Source of the DNA: Pseudolabrys sp.
GTDB lineage: Bacteria; Pseudomonadota; Alphaproteobacteria; Rhizobiales; Xanthobacteraceae
Reading direction: 5' to 3'
Length of the DNA: 64,000 nucleotides
NCBI GenBank assembly: GCA_022841665.1
Contig: JALHRB010000007.1
Coordinates: 54,196-118,195 of the forward strand
Each line of letters starts with the position of its first letter. The stretch's first letter is position 1. Shown one piece after another: positions 11,417-45,274 of this stretch. The notes beneath the pieces are model-generated. The model was not told where the DNA came from, ran no database searches, and saw only the letters and a list, made by a program, of their open reading frames with translations. Both the position numbers and the translations under genes were made by a program.

Positions 11417-11785
11417 ATGCGTGCGGGCGTAAGAAAAGCGCTGAATGTGGTGGCGATCCTGGCGATCGCCCTGCACACCGTGCTGTGGGCGGGCGCCATG
11501 CCCTCCGCCGGCGCCGCAGTCGATCCCTTCAGCGTCATCTGCCACAGCGGCGAGCCGGCCGCCGACGCGCAGGCTCCCGACGCGCCGGCGCAGGCGCCGT
11601 CCAAGGCCTGCGACCATTGCAGCCTGTGCGCCTCCACCGCGGCGGGCGTGCCGCCCGAGGACATCATCGCCGGGCGCCTCGCGCCGGCCCGCGTCCTGTT
11701 GCGGCTAGCAGTGGCGACGTCGGCGCGGCCGCCGCACGAACTCGGTACCGACAAGCTGCCACGAGGTCCTCCGCAACCGGCGTGA
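11417..11785 (+). CDS. DUF2946-like cysteine/histidine protein
   Basis: N-terminal hydrophobic segment, then ICH..CDHCSLC motifs. Sits upstream of the YcnI-CopC-CopD genes, as is typical for this family. Confidence 0.55.
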
Positions 11786-11837
11786 AGCGTGCGGCGCAAG
11801 CCGCTTTCCCCTTCCGCCCATTGCAAGGATCACATCC

Positions 11838-12368
11838 ATGTCTCGTCTGAACCTTCGCGGCTGCGCGCGCGTTGCCGCCGCCTGTTATTTTCTCACCGCC
11901 GCACCCGCCTTCGCCCATGTCACGCTCGAGCAAAAGGAGGCGCCGGTCGGCGCTTCCTACAAGGCCGTGCTGCGCGTGCCGCACGGCTGCGGCGATTCAC
12001 CCACCGTGCGCATCACCGTGCGCATTCCCGAGGGCGTCATCGCGGTCAAGCCGATGGTGAAGCCGGGCTGGAAGATCGCCGTCAAGAAAGGCGCCTACGC
12101 CAAGTCCTATGGCTACTTCCACGGCGCGACCTTCTCGCATGGCGTCAAGGAAGTGACCTGGAGCGGCTGCCGGCTGCCGAACGACTTCTACGACGAGTTC
12201 GTCTTCGCCACCTTCATCGCCGGCGAGCTGCCGGCGGGGCAGACGCTCCACTTCCCGGTGGTGCAAAACTGCGCGAAGGGCGCCCACCACTGGGTTGACC
12301 TGCCGGCCGCGGACGGCAAGCCTGCCAAGGAACCTGCGCCGGGCGTCAAGCTGGTACCGAAGAACTAG
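11838..12368 (+). CDS. YcnI-family (DUF1775) periplasmic copper-binding protein
   Basis: Signal peptide ends AFA followed by HVTL, giving a mature N-terminal His. GASYKAVLRVPHGC motif present. Confidence 0.8.
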   Translation: MSRLNLRGCARVAAACYFLTAAPAFAHVTLEQKEAPVGASYKAVLRVPHGCGDSPTVRITVRIPEGVIAVKPMVKPGWKIAVKKGAYAKSYGYFHGATFSHGVKEVTWSGCRLPNDFYDEFVFATFIAGELPAGQTLHFPVVQNCAKGAHHWVDLPAADGKPAKEPAPGVKLVPKN

Positions 12369-12378
12369 GAGGCTGGTC

Positions 12379-12732
12379 ATGCGACTTCCCCTCTTCGTCA
12401 TCGCCGCCGCGCTGGCGCCGAGCTTGGCTTTCGCGCACGCGCATCTCGACCGCGCGATGCCGGCGAAGGGCAGCAACGTGTCGCCCGCCCCCAAAGAGGT
12501 GACCCTTTGGTTCACGGAAGCGATCGAGCCGAAGTTCTCCTCGATCGTCGTGCGCGACGCCAAGGGCGCGGCCATGCAGGACGGCGCGGCGCGCGTCGAT
12601 CCGGCCAACAAGGCGCAGTTGCGCGTGCCGGTGAAGCCATTGCCACCGGGCACCTACAAGGTGATCTGGCGCGTGCTGTCGGTCGACACGCACCGATCGC
12701 AGGGCGAGTTTACCTTCCGGGTCGGACCGTGA
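12379..12732 (+). CDS. copC: Copper resistance/homeostasis protein CopC
   Basis: Trimmed to the ATG at 12379, with AGGAGG 7 nt upstream. Signal peptide, then mature HAHL... A conserved His sits in SVDTHRSQG. No Met-rich Cu(I) loop is seen. Confidence 0.85.
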   Translation: MRLPLFVIAAALAPSLAFAHAHLDRAMPAKGSNVSPAPKEVTLWFTEAIEPKFSSIVVRDAKGAAMQDGAARVDPANKAQLRVPVKPLPPGTYKVIWRVLSVDTHRSQGEFTFRVGP

Positions 12733-12741
12733 GGCGGCAGC

Positions 12742-13956
12742 TTGATTGAGCCGCTGATCCTGGTGCGGGCTTTGCACTTCGCGGCGACGCTGCTGGCGTC
12801 CGGCACGGTGGGGTTCGGCGTGGCTGTGGCGCGAGGCGACATGCCGCCGGCCTTGCGGCGGCGGCTCGCGTTCCTGACCTGGGGCGCGCTCGCCGCTGCC
12901 GTGCTGTCCGGCGCGGCATGGCTGGTGCTGCTTGCCTCCGACATCTTCGGTGCGCCCATCGTCGAGGTCTGCCTGAACGGGGGCGCCTGGTCGGTGCTGA
13001 ACGATACCCGGTTCGGCCAGGTCGCAAGCGTCCGACTGGCCGTCGCCGTCGTCATGGCCGCACTGGTGGCGAGTCCTGGCGCGCGCGCGCTGCAACTGGC
13101 GGCGGCCGCGCTGTTCGCCGCCCTGCCCGCCTGGACCGGGCACGCCGGCGCCGGGCTTGGGCCGGCCGGAACGGTGCATCTGTGGTCGGACGCGGTGCAT
13201 CTGCTAGCGGCGGCCGCCTGGCTCGGCGCCCTGCCGGCGCTGGCGCTGTTCCTGCGCATGGAGCGGCGCGCGGAGGCGCTGGCGGCGGTCACCGGCCGCT
13301 TTTCGAGGCTGGGCGTGGCAAGCGTCGCCGTCCTGCTGGCGAGCGGCCTGATCAACAGCTGGAACCTGCTGGGCGACCCGCGGAACCTGATCGCGACCGA
13401 CTACGGCCGGCTGCTTTTGCTCAAGATCGCCCTGTTCGTGGCCATGGTGGCCGTGGCGGCGGTCAACCGCTTCCACCTGACGCCGCGGCTGCCGGACGGC
13501 GGGGCCGCCGGCGCGCTCGCCCGCAACAGCCTCCGGGAGGCCGCCTTGGGCCTGGGCGTTGTCCTGTTCGTGGGGGCGCTCGGCACCGTGCCGCCCTCGG
13601 CCCATGTCCATGTCGCGCCCACCGCGATCCCGACCGAGGCGGCCTACGTCCATATTCACACCGCGGAGGCTATGGCGGACGTGATCGTCGACCCCGGGGC
13701 CACGCAAAACCGTGCGATCATTCGCCTTTCGCGCGATGATGGGCAGGAATACCCCGCCCGGCGCGTGCGGCTGGTGCTCGACCCGCCCAGCGGAGGGCAA
13801 TCGTTGCAGATCGATGCAAATCGCAACGCAGAAGGCGCCTGGGAAGCCGCCGGACTGACCCTGCCCGCACCCGGAACCTGGACGGTCAAGGTCGTGATCG
13901 GAACCGAAGCCGGCGGCGAACTCATCCTCGACGCGCCGATCATGATCGAACCCTGA
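12742..13956 (+). CDS. copD: CopD-family inner-membrane copper protein with an extra C-terminal soluble domain
   Basis: Eight hydrophobic segments, including the WTGHAG and HLxxAAxWLG motifs. TTG start lies 5 nt after a GAGGCGG. The C-terminal ~115 aa is non-membrane. Confidence 0.8.
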   Translation: MIEPLILVRALHFAATLLASGTVGFGVAVARGDMPPALRRRLAFLTWGALAAAVLSGAAWLVLLASDIFGAPIVEVCLNGGAWSVLNDTRFGQVASVRLAVAVVMAALVASPGARALQLAAAALFAALPAWTGHAGAGLGPAGTVHLWSDAVHLLAAAAWLGALPALALFLRMERRAEALAAVTGRFSRLGVASVAVLLASGLINSWNLLGDPRNLIATDYGRLLLLKIALFVAMVAVAAVNRFHLTPRLPDGGAAGALARNSLREAALGLGVVLFVGALGTVPPSAHVHVAPTAIPTEAAYVHIHTAEAMADVIVDPGATQNRAIIRLSRDDGQEYPARRVRLVLDPPSGGQSLQIDANRNAEGAWEAAGLTLPAPGTWTVKVVIGTEAGGELILDAPIMIEP

Positions 13957-36653: not shown

Positions 36654-36846
36654 GCGGACAAACCCGATCGATGCCCGACGGCTCGACAACCGCTCATCCG
36701 GTGCCGACAAACAGTCGCCGTGATCGGAAACGACCGGGTTATCCCGGTGCTTGTGTGCGAACGATCCTGCTTACGTAACCCCTTGACCCGTCTATAGCCC
36801 TGAGTTGTGCTTGTTCTCAAGCTGCAACTCGGCGTCGGGGGGCAAC

Positions 36847-38622
36847 ATGAGCCTGCAAGCCTTTGAGCCTGGCGGCGGTGCGCGCGCCTGGATACGCACG
36901 CACGCGCTCACATTGGCCATCGCCCTCGTTATCGGCGCGGTGATCCTGCTCGATCAAACCGGAGTCTGGAAGATAATCCCGGCCGACTCCGGGAAAGTCG
37001 CCGCCTGGCTGTTGGTCGGCCTCGGCTTTTTCATCGTAATCGACCAACTCTTCACCGGCCAGGATACCGTGCCCTCGATCACCTGGGCGGCGGCCGCGGG
37101 CTATCTCATCGCGGCCACCATCCTTCTCACCGCGCTGGCACAAGGCAGCGAGCCCGGGCCGAAATTATGGGCCCTGAGCCTCGGCATATTCGCGTGTATC
37201 ACGACCGCGTTGACGCTGACGCTTCGGGCACGGCCTGTGCCCTGGCTCACGGGCGCTCTCATTATTGCAGTCGCTGCCGCAGCAGCGGCCACCGCAACGA
37301 TCGTCGTTCCCGTCGTTCGCGCGCGGCCCGACCTCTGGATATTCGCTATCGCCGCGTTCGTTGGCAGTTCGATCACACTGCTGCTGCTGCTCTTGAACGA
37401 ACGCATATACGAGAAGCGCCACCGCATCATGCAGTCCCTGCTCGACGACCTGGCCGTGCGCCGCGCGGGAATTGAGCAAGGCGACATCGCCCTCCTGAAG
37501 ATGGCCGCGCACAAATACGGCACCAAGCTGCGCAACGGCGCGCCCCTGCCTGCTGAGGCGGCGGCGCAGAGTAACGCCGGCGGGCCGGCCGAAGCCCGCT
37601 GGCCGTTATTCTTGGCCGCAAGCGCTTATCTGGCCTTCAGCGTCGTCGGTTACGTGCTGCTGTTCACCCCGATCTGTGTTGTGTTTGGCGTGGACGTCGG
37701 TCCAGGCACGGCCAAGCCGGCGTGCTCGGCGAGCTGGATTTCAAGCGCACTCATATGGACCGCCGCCGAAAAAGTGGACTTCAAGGACCTGATCACGACT
37801 GTTGGAATTGCCGGAGTCGCCTTTCTGGGCGCGCATCTTTTTACGCTGCGCTACCTGTTCAAGGCGGCGTTGAACTCCGAATTGAACCAGTTCAAATGGA
37901 TACGCGGCGCCTTGCATTTGCTCACCGGCGTTGTGATCGGCGTCATTCTCTACCGTGCCCTGAAGGACACCGGCTGGCTCGCCGGCGCCGTGACGTCCTA
38001 TGCCGCGGCGCTCTGGTTCGGCGTCGCCTTCGCGTCAGGCTGGATACCGGACTTCGCGCTCGGAACTTTGTTTCGTCATCTGCGCGTCAGCAATCTCAAG
38101 AGCGTCGACGAGGACGTGTTGAGGTCGGCCGCGCTGGTGCCGATCGAGATCGTCGATGGGATCGATTACGACACGCGCTTCCGGCTGGAAGAAAACAACA
38201 TCATCGACGTGCAAAACCTAGCGACCTACAACCCGATTACTCTGTATGTGGAGACGCCGTTCGGACTTTCGCAGATTTTCGACTGGATATTGCAGGCCCA
38301 GCTTTGCCTCGCCGTCGGACCCAAGGGCTATGCCGAGCTGAGGAAGATCGCGATCCGCACCATCTTTCAGCTTGAAGACGAGGTGCGCGACGCGCCCGAC
38401 AATTACGCCAGCATGATCGGCAGCGCCCTGTTCGCAGGCGCGTCTCCCGAACGGCTGAAGGCGATCGCTGCCGCCGCTGCGGATGGCGGCGGGACGACGC
38501 CCGACCGCGTCGATCCCAAAGTCGTCAAATACGCCGTGAGCCAGATGTGCGGCAACCTTTATATCGTCTCGCTGCGCAGACTTTACGAATACATCTACCG
38601 AACGCCCGTAGCGCAGCCTTAA
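36847..38622 (+). CDS. Large polytopic membrane protein, unknown function
   Basis: Trimmed to the ATG at 36847 (MSLQAFEPGG). About 6 N-terminal TM segments, a soluble linker, more TM segments, and a ~190-aa C-terminal soluble region. No family recognised. Confidence 0.6.
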   Translation: MSLQAFEPGGGARAWIRTHALTLAIALVIGAVILLDQTGVWKIIPADSGKVAAWLLVGLGFFIVIDQLFTGQDTVPSITWAAAAGYLIAATILLTALAQGSEPGPKLWALSLGIFACITTALTLTLRARPVPWLTGALIIAVAAAAAATATIVVPVVRARPDLWIFAIAAFVGSSITLLLLLLNERIYEKRHRIMQSLLDDLAVRRAGIEQGDIALLKMAAHKYGTKLRNGAPLPAEAAAQSNAGGPAEARWPLFLAASAYLAFSVVGYVLLFTPICVVFGVDVGPGTAKPACSASWISSALIWTAAEKVDFKDLITTVGIAGVAFLGAHLFTLRYLFKAALNSELNQFKWIRGALHLLTGVVIGVILYRALKDTGWLAGAVTSYAAALWFGVAFASGWIPDFALGTLFRHLRVSNLKSVDEDVLRSAALVPIEIVDGIDYDTRFRLEENNIIDVQNLATYNPITLYVETPFGLSQIFDWILQAQLCLAVGPKGYAELRKIAIRTIFQLEDEVRDAPDNYASMIGSALFAGASPERLKAIAAAAADGGGTTPDRVDPKVVKYAVSQMCGNLYIVSLRRLYEYIYRTPVAQP

Positions 38623-40316: not shown

Positions 40317-40348
40317 TGACATCAAGGCACAGCGCCCCAAACAAAAAG

Positions 40349-40628
40349 AAACGGCGCCTTGCGGCGCCGTTTCGCGTTTCATGGGGACCGCCCGCCTCAG
40401 TGCGCGGTGAGCCCTGAGCCCTCCTCGTCGCCATCGGCCGCCGGCGTGGCGAGCTTGGCATTCTCCTCGTCCCAGACGATCGGCTCCGGCTTGCGCACCA
40501 GCGCGTGCGCCAGAACCTCGTCCATGCGCGTGACCGGGATGATCTCCAGGCCCTTCTTGATCGTGTCGGAGATTTCCACCAGGTCCTTGGCGTTCTCCTC
40601 CGGAATCAGGACGGTCTTCATGCCGCCG
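40349..40628. repeat. Left 280-bp direct repeat (lon terminator plus lon 3' end)
   Basis: 278/280 identical to 42800-43079. The only differences are at 40592 (g vs a) and 40604 (a vs g). Confidence 0.95.
40397..40628 (-). pseudogene. lon: Orphan 3' fragment of lon (last ~76 codons)
   Basis: Encodes ..[43 protein letters not shown], identical to the C-terminus of the intact Lon at 42848-45274. Upstream homology ends abruptly at 40628. Confidence 0.9.
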
Positions 40629-40693
40629 ACTTACATGGCCGATCCGTTGCACAACAATTGGCACAGTTTCGCTGCATAAGCCCCTCTGCGCTA

Positions 40694-42349
40694 TCAAATA
40701 TCTGCAATGTGCGCCTCTTTCACTCTTACGTACGTCTTAGAATGCCCCTCGCCCCGCTCTTCAAGTTCAATGAGATCAATTCTGCCTATGAATTCGTGAA
40801 ATGATGCTGCTGCAAACCGACTGTAATCAAATTCTGGAAACTCAATCTTAAGCAAATGGCCTAGCTGACCTAAGAAGATCCAACCACCTTCTCGCCCATA
40901 CTTTCTTACAATTTCTGTGATTTTTGTGTGAGCCGATCGGAGTTGGTCATCATAATTCTGTTGTGAATTTTGACCATTGGAACGCATTCGCACGAATACC
41001 GCCTTTGCAGGACCAGTGCCGCGCTCGTCAAACTCTAAGCCGTCAAGTTTTCTTAGGACAGATATCAAATTTCGTCCGCCATACCTTTGCGGAGTAAACC
41101 CCGAAATTTGCTTGCGAAGTTCAGTGCCAAATTCAGCAAGCGATATCCAAGCGCCCTCATAGTCTGATAGTTGAACAATCAAATCTTCTGCAATTTTTGC
41201 CAAGTCCCTGCTTATCTCCGCCGTATCCCTGATAGGCTCAATTTCTTCAGGCAGCGGAATTGTGTAATTCTGAATTGGAAGGCTTTCGAGTGAACGCGCA
41301 CTTAGTTTGAACTTTCCAAGGAGCTTATCGACAGCGAGCAAAGCGCCTACACCATTCGGCTCGCCACGATAATCCCTAAATAAGGGAAAAATCTCTAAGC
41401 CCTTCAGCTCTCGTATACTAAGTAATGCATTAGTCACACGAAACAAAAAATCCCGCTCTTCGTATCTGCCTACCACATAGATGCGATCAATGCCTCTCCT
41501 CAGCTTTTCTTGTACTCTTTTTACGTAGGCTTCAATACCGGGTCTAAAGTCAGGTGGTTTGGAAACCAACAAAAACCCGTATGAGCTACAAGAGCCTTGA
41601 TAGCTCCAATCATGCTCAGGCTTATTTTTGCGAAGAAATGGTTGAAATCCCAACATATGAGATAAAATTGTTTCGATAGTAGTCGGCAGCTCAGCGCGCT
41701 CCGAATGGAACCGCGAGTTATTCGCGACATAGTCTATTTCCCGAAGGAAGGGCCCCATCAGCAATCCATACTCATTCAACCTTACACAATCTGCGAAGTG
41801 ATCCAAAACCATTTGCTTATCACCGGCAACCTGCTGAATGAAAACAGTGTCAAATTCGCCAAGCAAGTATGGATGGCTTTCCTCTAAGCCGGCTCGTGCA
41901 ATCGCAAGGGCTGCGCCGGAAACTAGTTCGTCCGGGAGAATGTCACGTGTGTTAGGAAACAGCGCACCACGAAAATAAATCCATAGTGTTTGCATTAGAT
42001 TATGATCGGTATTAACGCCGGGTCGGACTCTGAGAACTATTTTCCCATCTCTAAGTTGAGGCGCTTGAGAGTTTCGCACCCAGCGAACCTTTGCTCGCTT
42101 AACCCAGCCGGACGGAAGATACTGCTGTAAACGAAACGCCGTTTGATTCAGTACTTCCTCAATTTGAGTGGCGACCGCCTTTCGCCGAAAAAAAGGAATT
42201 GTAACGCTGTCCGCCAACAGTCGCCACAACTTTGATTGCGCTGACATGAGGCGAGGAAATGTAATCAATACCAGCCCAAATCCCTTGCCCGCGAGGTCTA
42301 CGCCGCCAAATATTGCAAGAACCAAAAGCAAAATTTCGAGCGTGTTCAT
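40694..42349 (-). CDS. 551-aa protein: N-terminal TM anchor, uncharacterised ~350-aa core, two C-terminal OST-HTH/LOTUS-like repeats
   Basis: Uninterrupted ORF in AT-rich DNA, where random long ORFs are unlikely. TM segment LEILLLVLAIFGGVDLAGKGFGLVLITF. Repeats GAWISLAEFGTELRKQISGFTPQRYGGRNLISVLRKL..VFVRM and GGWIFLGQLGHLLKIEFPEFDYSRFAAASFHEFIGRI..TYVRV. Confidence 0.8.
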   Translation of the reverse strand: MNTLEILLLVLAIFGGVDLAGKGFGLVLITFPRLMSAQSKLWRLLADSVTIPFFRRKAVATQIEEVLNQTAFRLQQYLPSGWVKRAKVRWVRNSQAPQLRDGKIVLRVRPGVNTDHNLMQTLWIYFRGALFPNTRDILPDELVSGAALAIARAGLEESHPYLLGEFDTVFIQQVAGDKQMVLDHFADCVRLNEYGLLMGPFLREIDYVANNSRFHSERAELPTTIETILSHMLGFQPFLRKNKPEHDWSYQGSCSSYGFLLVSKPPDFRPGIEAYVKRVQEKLRRGIDRIYVVGRYEERDFLFRVTNALLSIRELKGLEIFPLFRDYRGEPNGVGALLAVDKLLGKFKLSARSLESLPIQNYTIPLPEEIEPIRDTAEISRDLAKIAEDLIVQLSDYEGAWISLAEFGTELRKQISGFTPQRYGGRNLISVLRKLDGLEFDERGTGPAKAVFVRMRSNGQNSQQNYDDQLRSAHTKITEIVRKYGREGGWIFLGQLGHLLKIEFPEFDYSRFAAASFHEFIGRIDLIELEERGEGHSKTYVRVKEAHIADI

Positions 42350-42684
42350 GGTGAGCTCATTGCGCCGAGGCAGATTTTGGCGTCACAAAGGAAGGCGTAG
42401 CGCCCTTCTTTAATGACAAAACCAGCAAGGTTTTCGAACGTGAGCACGGTGTTGCAATGTGCGCAGCGTAGCTCGCCGTTGACGAGGGCATTAAACTGAC
42501 CAATCTCTTTAAGTAAATTTGTCAGGTCGTGGTCGGTAATTAGCGATACGTCCGCTTTCTGGAATCTCCCTAAAAAGGAGAGCCACCTCGTCCATACCGC
42601 AGATAAATGCACCCTAAGATTGAGAATCGTACTGCGCATATATCCCTCATCGCGGTCCATTTGATGGACCGGCGAATATTTCAT
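42346..42684 (-). CDS. Small (97-112 aa) Cys4 zinc-ribbon-like protein
   Basis: CAHC..(22 aa)..CDAKIC near the C-terminus. Its stop forms an ATGA overlap with the downstream 551-aa gene. The alternative ATG at 42639 has a GAGGGA Shine-Dalgarno and may be the real start. Confidence 0.65.
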   Translation of the reverse strand: MKYSPVHQMDRDEGYMRSTILNLRVHLSAVWTRWLSFLGRFQKADVSLITDHDLTNLLKEIGQFNALVNGELRCAHCNTVLTFENLAGFVIKEGRYAFLCDAKICLGAMSSP

Positions 42685-42723
42685 TTGACCGACTGATCTT
42701 GACCTAGACCCCCAGGTTAACTG

Positions 42724-42751
42724 ATATTAGAACATCCCTGAGTTGAATCAA
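42724..42751 (-). promoter_or_regulatory. Sigma-70-like promoter for the island operon
   Basis: On the minus strand: TTGATT, a 16-nt spacer, then TAATAT. About 40 nt upstream of the first ATG at 42684. Confidence 0.5.
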
Positions 42752-42790
42752 GTTTACGAACCGACTTTATAGATAGCGAGGTTCTTCGAA

Positions 42791-42823
42791 ACCAAAGAAA
42801 AACGGCGCCTTGCGGCGCCGTTT
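42791..42823 (-). terminator. lon rho-independent terminator (a second copy sits at 40349-40372)
   Basis: Stem aaacggcgcc-ttgc-ggcgccgttt with a T-run on the minus strand. Confidence 0.8.
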
Positions 42824-42847
42824 CGCGTTTCATGGGGACCGCCCGCC

Positions 42848-45274
<2,427 letters not shown>

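Follow-up and report, generated by a model that had tools for sequence, protein, structure and literature searches.

A two-gene islet behind lon in Pseudolabrys sp. belongs to an unnamed family with interchangeable RNA-binding heads and may encode a membrane-tethered conflict module

Introduction

RNase Y of Firmicutes is a membrane-anchored endoribonuclease with an N-terminal transmembrane anchor, cytoplasmic RNA-binding domains, and an HD catalytic domain. Here, we describe a two-gene operon, designated ORF-A and ORF-B (ORF, open reading frame), found in a 64,000-nt stretch of DNA from Pseudolabrys sp. (GCA_022841665.1, contig JALHRB010000007.1, positions 54,196 to 118,195 of the forward strand; the whole of this stretch is referred to as the window). 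ORF-B resembles RNase Y in that an N-terminal anchor precedes predicted cytoplasmic RNA-binding domains, and some members of its family carry KH domains; it differs in that it is not a conserved housekeeping gene and is paired with a small putative zinc protein. No HD phosphohydrolase domain was found in ORF-B or in the sampled family members, among which the only trace is a subthreshold HD_assoc_2 match in protein P0180.

The other systems to which the locus can be compared are built on LOTUS (OST-HTH) domains, which bind G-rich and G-quadruplex (G4) RNA, with a positive result for one of two bacterial LOTUS domains (PMC7498356). In the predicted RNases of the NYN/LabA-like plus OST-HTH (MARF1-like) type, an N-terminal module is supplied with RNA by one or two C-terminal LOTUS domains of the bacterial type (Anantharaman, Zhang & Aravind 2010, PMC2848206), an arrangement that ORF-B resembles. 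However, ORF-B returns no NYN/PIN hit in Pfam or NCBIfam, its N-terminal part being a membrane anchor and a helical bundle/Alba-like core, and it has an obligate small partner gene, whereas the NYN-LOTUS proteins are reported to have no conserved neighborhood (PMC2848206). SzsA (Seongzusin) is a LOTUS-domain protein reported to protect Pseudomonas aeruginosa from RNA phages (bioRxiv 10.64898/2026.04.06.716636); by description, it is comparable as a LOTUS protein with no stated catalytic domain that is located in a defense island, and its authors propose phage-RNA binding followed by effector recruitment. SzsA is, however, reported to be active as a single cloned gene, with no mention of a partner or a membrane anchor. 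OST-HTH and S1 modules have further been predicted to be the invader-sensing parts of conflict systems (PMC8195603), and the TERNS3 OST-HTH + S1 effector modules (Kaur et al. 2021, PMC8195603) share with the family described here the use of LOTUS and S1 as candidate modules for recognition of invader nucleic acid; TERNS3 is multigene, NTPase-based, and adaptor-joined, whereas we find a two-gene membrane module with neither NTPase nor adaptor. Type II toxin–antitoxin (TA) modules are two small adjacent or overlapping genes, one neutralizing the other; the overlapping gene order of the pair would suit such a module, but the 551 residues of ORF-B lie far above the typical toxin size. By analogy, the closest functional counterparts would be sensor-plus-membrane-effector defense pairs and LOTUS-based RNA organizers.

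The gene pair

ORF-A and ORF-B represent a large family that has no name, in which a constant membrane-anchored core carries interchangeable RNA-binding heads and an Alba-like domain, is accompanied by an obligate partner, and recurs near candidate or known defense genes and in phage. In the window, the pair is defined by the following features:

40694..42349 (stop included), minus strand: ORF-B, a 551-aa bitopic membrane protein (ORF list; 32 homologues)
42349..42639, minus strand: ORF-A, the small partner, 97 aa (ORF list; 112 aa, 42346..42684, if translation starts at an alternative ATG farther upstream, at 42684)
42346..42349, minus strand: ATGA stop/start overlap from ORF-A to ORF-B (sequence; a similar overlap or a gap of ≤10 nt in most homologous loci)

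An earlier reading made from the DNA letters alone (the sequence-only reading) had described two codirectional minus-strand ORFs of 112 (or 97) and 551 aa joined by this ATGA, which it took as a sign of translational coupling, and the coordinates agree. The pair is conserved and translationally coupled. It had also held a 551-codon open frame to be unlikely by chance, and the probability of such a frame at the local composition is indeed about 9e-14. Since a chance frame is this improbable and both proteins have homologues, we conclude that both ORFs are real genes. As to the two lengths offered for ORF-A, the 97-aa start is better supported than the 112-aa start, because the ATG at 42639 is preceded by GAGGGATAT, with a Shine–Dalgarno-like GAGG 5 nt before the ATG, because homologues also begin at this ATG, and because P0033, the gene as called in the database, has this length of 97 aa.

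Architecture of ORF-B

An AlphaFold2 (AF2) model of ORF-B was built on 24 homologues, with a mean predicted local distance difference test score (pLDDT) of 82.9. Together with profile searches, it resolves these regions:

42260..42343, minus strand: residues 3–30, N-terminal transmembrane helix (Kyte–Doolittle 19-residue maximum of 1.98 at residues 3–21)
41300..42259, minus strand: residues 31–350, conserved cytoplasmic core (~320 aa) without family assignment (stalk helices, small β-sheet, helical bundle, Alba-like domain)
41315..41605, minus strand: residues 249–345, Alba/IF3-C-like β-α-β-α-β-β domain with an isoelectric point (pI) of 9.4 (model and Foldseek)
40985..41221, minus strand: residues 377–455, LOTUS/OST-HTH domain 1 (Pfam PF12872; PDB 2kzv match at residues 397–461; winged helix in the model)
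40721..40972, minus strand: residues 460–543, LOTUS/OST-HTH domain 2 (best Pfam stretch 471–536; PDB 2kpm match at residues 483–545)

The N-terminal helix (residues 3–30) leads in the model into two long basic helices that extend to residue 77, followed by a three-stranded sheet (residues 85–108), a helical bundle (residues 114–233), the β-α-β-α-β-β unit (residues 249–340), a disordered linker (residues 351–376), and two winged-helix domains. Residues 31–60 are strongly basic, with a pI of 12 and six Lys/Arg residues. Because the transmembrane helix is directly followed by this pI-12 stretch, ORF-B is predicted to have its N terminus outside and its C terminus, together with most of its length, in the cytoplasm (N-out, C-in); the hydrophobic N-terminal helix is kept across the ORF-B family. 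An architecture in which ORF-B sits in the inner membrane by way of one N-terminal helix, with the remainder cytoplasmic, is therefore well supported.

PF12872 is the only Pfam family found in ORF-B and is matched in two stretches (71.3 bits versus a gathering cut-off of 23.8, E = 6e-20). The model shows the order helix-helix-helix-strand-strand twice (residues 376–455 and 460–543), which is the winged helix-turn-helix fold, and a PDB sequence search with ORF-B as a single query returned only weak LOTUS matches, to the bacterial nuclear magnetic resonance structures 2kzv (E = 0.011) and 2kpm (E = 0.5). These findings, together with the transmembrane helix, bear out the earlier description of ORF-B as a membrane-anchored protein with nucleic-acid-binding domains.

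The core that joins the anchor to the LOTUS domains matches nothing in Pfam, NCBIfam, PADLOC, PHROG, or PDB sequences (core profile versus PDB: none at E ≤ 10). In a fold search, the top PDB Foldseek matches of the ORF-B model are Alba/Sso10b chains, with probabilities of 0.91–1.00, target template-modeling (TM) scores of 0.55–0.68, and modest E values of 0.04–0.3 over 85–95 columns. The Foldseek output carries no query coordinates, and we place the match at residues 249–345 because this is the only segment with the Alba order of elements (E249–262, H272–284, E289–294, H296–309, E315–325, and E331–340, where E is strand and H is helix). The likeness to Alba/Sso10b thus comprises the predicted fold of residues ~249–345, their basic character, and, in the LOTUS clade, a Gly-Arg pair that starts the second helix. 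The differences are that ORF-B has no match to Pfam Alba at E ≤ 1, and thus no membership by sequence profile, and that the putative domain lies within a membrane protein, whereas Alba is a free chromatin/RNA-binding dimer.

The sequence-only reading had recognized no enzymatic motif, and none emerged: no catalytic domain was detected in ORF-B by Pfam, NCBIfam, or PADLOC, and of the HEPN Rx4-6H, PD-(D/E)xK, HD, and NYN signatures sought in the conserved columns of the ORF-B family, none is conserved. Only N117, G195, and Y275 are near-invariant across the wide family, while many residues are invariant within the LOTUS clade. An enzymatic core was considered for ORF-B and rejected, as almost no polar residue is invariant family-wide and the conserved columns hold no catalytic signature.

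The small partner, ORF-A

The AF2 model of ORF-A has a pLDDT of 77, rising to >90 over residues 40–90, and begins with a basic helix; a pair of short helices comes next, then a CxxC...C(x4)C putative zinc-knuckle/β-hairpin (hairpin at residues 71–85), and finally a C-terminal helix. A word-indexed search with ORF-A gave only itself; its homologues were recovered by translating the DNA upstream of ORF-B homologues, followed by a profile search. The resulting alignments show no variation at C59, C62, or C85, whereas the position of the fourth candidate ligand is occupied by Cys (at x4 spacing) or by His, within the consensus (S/T)LIED-DL--LL--G---L--G-L-C--C---LT-ENL-GF-V--G-Y-F-C----C. Matches to Pfam zinc-ribbon families are all subthreshold (best E = 0.003), and the Foldseek search returned nothing significant (L24e, Rim2, and HNH matches, all at E > 0.3); ORF-A likewise has no PADLOC, NCBIfam, or PHROG family. 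The earlier label of "zinc-ribbon-like" is therefore reasonable on the cysteine pattern of the sequence but not established.

Family, head swapping, and obligate pairing

Full-length relatives of ORF-B with LOTUS heads are rare, numbering 32 clusters among 5.8 billion, at 43–71% identity over the full length; PF12872 is present in the precomputed annotation of all but one of these homologues, which is a fragment. The core is far more widespread. A profile of the first 352 residues of ORF-B, run against 1.84 billion representatives, retrieved 735 clusters (50% identity) at E ≤ 1e-3, of which 70 are found at E ≤ 1e-30. Most members of this core family are 340–370 aa long and thus consist of the transmembrane helix and core with no head. 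In others, two to four S1 domains replace the LOTUS domains (P0124, P0143, P0156, P0176, and P0182), or NusA-type KH domains do so (P0149, P0157, P0161, P0166, P0172, and P0180). This swap of C-terminal heads (two LOTUS domains, S1, KH, or none) on a constant core is the strongest functional clue that we obtained. Because the heads have only RNA binding in common, what selection seems to preserve is a surface for RNA binding at the membrane; in head-less members, the modeled Alba-like domain may provide a basal surface of this kind. Neither the core nor the partner has a family name in any library searched.

The small Cys-motif partner is encoded immediately upstream of ORF-B in 27 of 27 distinct loci (19 LOTUS-type, two S1-type, one KH-type, four head-less, and one phage), mostly with an overlap of 1–17 nt and otherwise with a gap of ≤10 nt. 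The taxa in which the family was seen are patchy and include Alphaproteobacteria (the window and loci L008 and L009), a Spirochaetales/Leptospiraceae metagenome-assembled genome (MAG), a Thermotogae phage, and a gut Siphoviridae contig.

A small upstream gene followed by a larger downstream gene in every locus is also the layout expected of a TA or addiction module, in which ORF-B would be a membrane-acting toxin and ORF-A its antitoxin, together stabilizing the mobile DNA that carries them. Carriage on mobile DNA and the presence of other TA pairs (BrnT/A and PIN-MazE) adjacent to family members fit such a module. Neither protein, however, falls into a TA family of Pfam, NCBIfam, or PADLOC, and a simple membrane toxin leaves the swappable, elaborate RNA-binding heads unexplained; we regard this explanation as improbable, and since TA and abortive-infection roles overlap, it is in part a sub-case of the conflict-module role discussed below.

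In the Spirochaetales/Leptospiraceae MAG (L028, 11127–11915 of JACKOZ010000004.1), which has the head-less form, a 262-aa RNase H-domain protein is encoded 56 nt downstream on the same strand, as seen in three independent contigs. In some subfamilies, this neighbor may add an enzyme to the module as its third component.

Genomic context

The neighborhoods of 15 loci with usable flanks were surveyed over about 5 kb, and known or candidate defense genes are found, as a raw count, in seven of these:

L007: PD-Lambda-5 A+B directly downstream (E = 6e-136 and 2e-114)
L033: Dazbog DzbA/DzbB upstream and PDC-S05 downstream
L032: type I restriction enzyme
L031: PDC-M29A and a Schlafen-AlbA_2 protein
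L001: TIR/PDC-S66-like gene and BrnT/BrnA
L013: PD-T4-6-like kinase
L026: trypsin-like (LmuA-like) gene, with a DpnI-like gene nearby and an adjacent serine recombinase

The pair is also carried by phage. The temperate Thermotogae phage Marinitoga camini virus 1 (KP836355.1; L027, 4297–5519) encodes a head-less pair, UF08_10/UF08_11, annotated as hypothetical and located between single-stranded DNA-binding protein (SSB)/replication genes and the terminase, and a 346-aa family member was found in a gut Siphoviridae contig (E = 6.5e-14). The association of the family with defense genes is suggestive, not proven. The sequence-only reading had likened the pair to phage-defense modules, and the context survey of homologues that it proposed speaks for this, in that the pair recurs close to known or candidate defense genes and is present in a temperate phage. 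The remaining loci, taken up below, have no such neighbor.

The same neighborhoods can be read differently. The pair could be a nonimmune, membrane-bound RNA-handling factor that tethers or organizes transcripts (localized translation, stabilization, or an RNase Y-like turnover scaffold) in the service of the host or of a mobile element, for example in the timing of phage expression. Every identifiable domain is of an RNA-binding type and none is catalytic; the phage copy lies between replication and packaging genes, where regulators also sit; several loci have no defense neighbors; and eukaryotic LOTUS proteins organize ribonucleoproteins (RNPs) (PMC2848206, PMC7498356). What makes us consider such a factor unlikely is the sporadic, islet-like distribution with a decayed copy in a close relative, the recurrence of known defense systems in the flanks, and the lack of linkage to RNA-metabolism genes, apart from the RNase H-domain neighbor in L028.

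Proposed function

Because the pair is sporadic, foreign in composition, often located among defense systems, and phage-borne, a conflict module appears to be its most likely role. We tentatively propose a membrane-tethered RNA-sensing conflict module of the defense or abortive-infection type, a proposal to which we give somewhat less than an even chance. In such a module, a complex of ORF-A and ORF-B would recognize invader RNA, for example phage transcripts or the genome of an RNA phage, and would sequester it at the inner membrane. Alternatively, the complex could multimerize on this RNA and, through its transmembrane helices, disturb the membrane, with abortive infection as the outcome. 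The part of ORF-A would be that of a co-sensor or of a regulator acting by stoichiometry. Given the lack of conserved catalytic residues, the effector step probably involves no enzymatic activity. A more specific form of the proposal is possible, though on balance unlikely, namely, that the family is an undescribed and widespread bacterial and phage class in which a membrane scaffold, equipped with plug-in heads of the LOTUS, S1, or KH type and always paired with a zinc mini-protein, captures invader RNA and stops infection with no enzyme. Such enzyme-free action would amount to RNA sequestration or RNA-triggered membrane immunity, and the module would then also be a prokaryotic counterpart of the LOTUS-based RNP organizers of animal germ cells.

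Several findings weigh against a conflict module. Eight of the 15 loci, including the window, have no recognized defense neighbor, and the PD-T4-6 match in L013 may be a generic Ser/Thr kinase. A scan of IMG/VR with the LOTUS-clade alignment gave no match, and the sole ORF-B match in a tblastn search of plasmids is to the LOTUS region of a NYN-LOTUS protein. PADLOC-DB v2.0 has no family at E ≤ 1 for ORF-A or ORF-B, and no model in NCBIfam or PHROGs matches either protein. RNA binding by ORF-B is predicted by analogy with its domain families, and the second of the two bacterial LOTUS domains mentioned above was negative (PMC7498356). The comparison with SzsA rests on its description and not on sequence. 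Finally, no effector chemistry is evident, and one transmembrane helix offers little from which to build a pore.

If the conflict-module proposal is true, the pair would be a widespread two-gene addition to the anti-phage repertoire, with about 735 clusters, among them members from Alphaproteobacteria, from a Thermotogae phage, and from the MAG of a spirochaete. The logic of the system would be unusual, in that recognition at the membrane is left to generic RNA-binding domains and neither a nuclease nor an NTPase nor a signaling enzyme takes part, and bacterial LOTUS domains would gain a function outside the NYN RNases and a link to the LOTUS protein that blocks RNA phages. The LOTUS, S1, KH, and head-less forms make up a natural domain-swap series with which RNA specificity can be dissected, and the operon, at 2 kb including its own upstream region, is directly testable. 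Even if nonimmune, a conserved membrane-anchored RNA-binding complex would be relevant to RNA localization in bacteria.

The insert and the lon duplication

In the window, the pair occupies a small insert behind lon, delimited as follows:

40629..42789: low-GC insert, whose sole cargo is ORF-A and ORF-B (2,161 bp; composition profile, 290-nt repeat at both edges)
42790..43079, minus strand: direct repeat copy 1 (3′ end and terminator of the intact lon gene)
40339..40628, minus strand: direct repeat copy 2, an orphan lon 3′ fragment and terminator, the likely end of operon transcription
42724..42751, minus strand: possible promoter, TTGATT-N16-TAATAT (weak, 8/12 consensus positions; read from the sequence)

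The insert has a GC content of 46.6% (versus 65% for the window), not the roughly 40% estimated earlier, and GC at third codon positions (GC3) is 0.43 in ORF-B versus 0.91 in the adjacent lon. This composition, unlike that of the flanks, and the repeats at both edges of the insert uphold the view of a compact, foreign module. What had been taken for an orphan lon fragment is present and turns out to be one arm of a 290-nt direct repeat, the two copies of which are 98% identical. The repeat unit is the lon terminator preceded by 219 nt of lon coding sequence, namely, its last 72 codons and the stop codon. The copies differ at only two positions, both of them synonymous and both in the initial ~40 nt of the orphan copy. 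The 2,161-bp insert holds no recombinase gene. The pattern looks like that expected if the resident lon had undergone one crossover with a 2,451-bp circle whose lon 3′ end was slightly different (foreign), and such a crossover seems to be favored over classical integrase-mediated insertion.

The only terminator-like hairpins in the region are the two lon copies (42824–42799 and 40373–40348), which agrees with the earlier suggestion that operon transcripts end at the duplicated lon terminator. The proposed promoter is present at 42751–42724 but fares less well: its 8/12 match falls below threshold and goes unlisted in a consensus promoter scan of the region, where promoter-like sites are no commoner than in shuffled sequence. 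An in-frame ATG survives in the orphan lon copy, from which the C-terminal 74 residues of Lon could be translated (40397–40621, minus strand); located downstream of ORF-B and ahead of the duplicated terminator, this ORF may be cotranscribed with the operon.

In a related alphaproteobacterial MAG (L009, CAVRIB010000024.1, 9500–11000), this islet follows immediately on the lon terminator, and lon is not duplicated. The islets are 68% identical in DNA between L009 and the window, whereas clpX and lon are 84–88% identical, and ORF-B of L009 is internally deleted by about 0.9 kb. Since the islet lies behind lon in both and is decayed in L009, it is recurrent at this site in the lineage and dispensable. 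The flanks of the two islets do not align outside the coding region, and hence no shared att-like site can be defined. L009 also differs in the orientation of tRNA-Val, which is inverted, and in having about 3.4 kb of additional DNA ahead of the HU gene.

The internally deleted ORF-B in this orthologous islet (CAVRIB010000024), together with the weak promoter match in the window, would be accounted for if the pair were inert, hitch-hiking cargo, that is, real genes that are idle in this genome and heading for decay. We hold this to be very improbable, given that both ORFs are intact in the window with all family-conserved residues present and that 43–71% identity over the full length of the LOTUS clade implies purifying selection. 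A housekeeping role was also considered and was rejected, since the pair is distributed sporadically and foreign in composition and its orthologue is decayed.

Other loci and neighboring features

In L003 (JGI Ga0056905_1000018, 11706–13146), about 270 nt of the 3′ end of thiC is duplicated beside a LOTUS-type homologue, in blocks that are 96% and 82% identical, and the only gene between the thiC 3′ copies codes for an OGG glycosylase, a layout like that of the lon duplication in the window. Tiny inserts between copies of a gene 3′ end (lon and thiC) suggest a recurrent route by which islets of one or two genes are acquired. In L006 (2900–14100 of an ENA ERZ1700618 contig), the module lies within an ~11-kb block that splits rplK (L11) from rplA (L1), which are normally contiguous; the block also carries genes for a 1,068-aa metallophosphatase-like protein, a DUF885 protein, and an amidohydrolase. 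Near the insert in the window, an Rfam search found two tRNAs only and no associated noncoding RNA. A few kilobases from the insert, a plus-strand ORF of 605 aa (36805–38622) with host-like GC encodes a protein with many hydrophobic segments.

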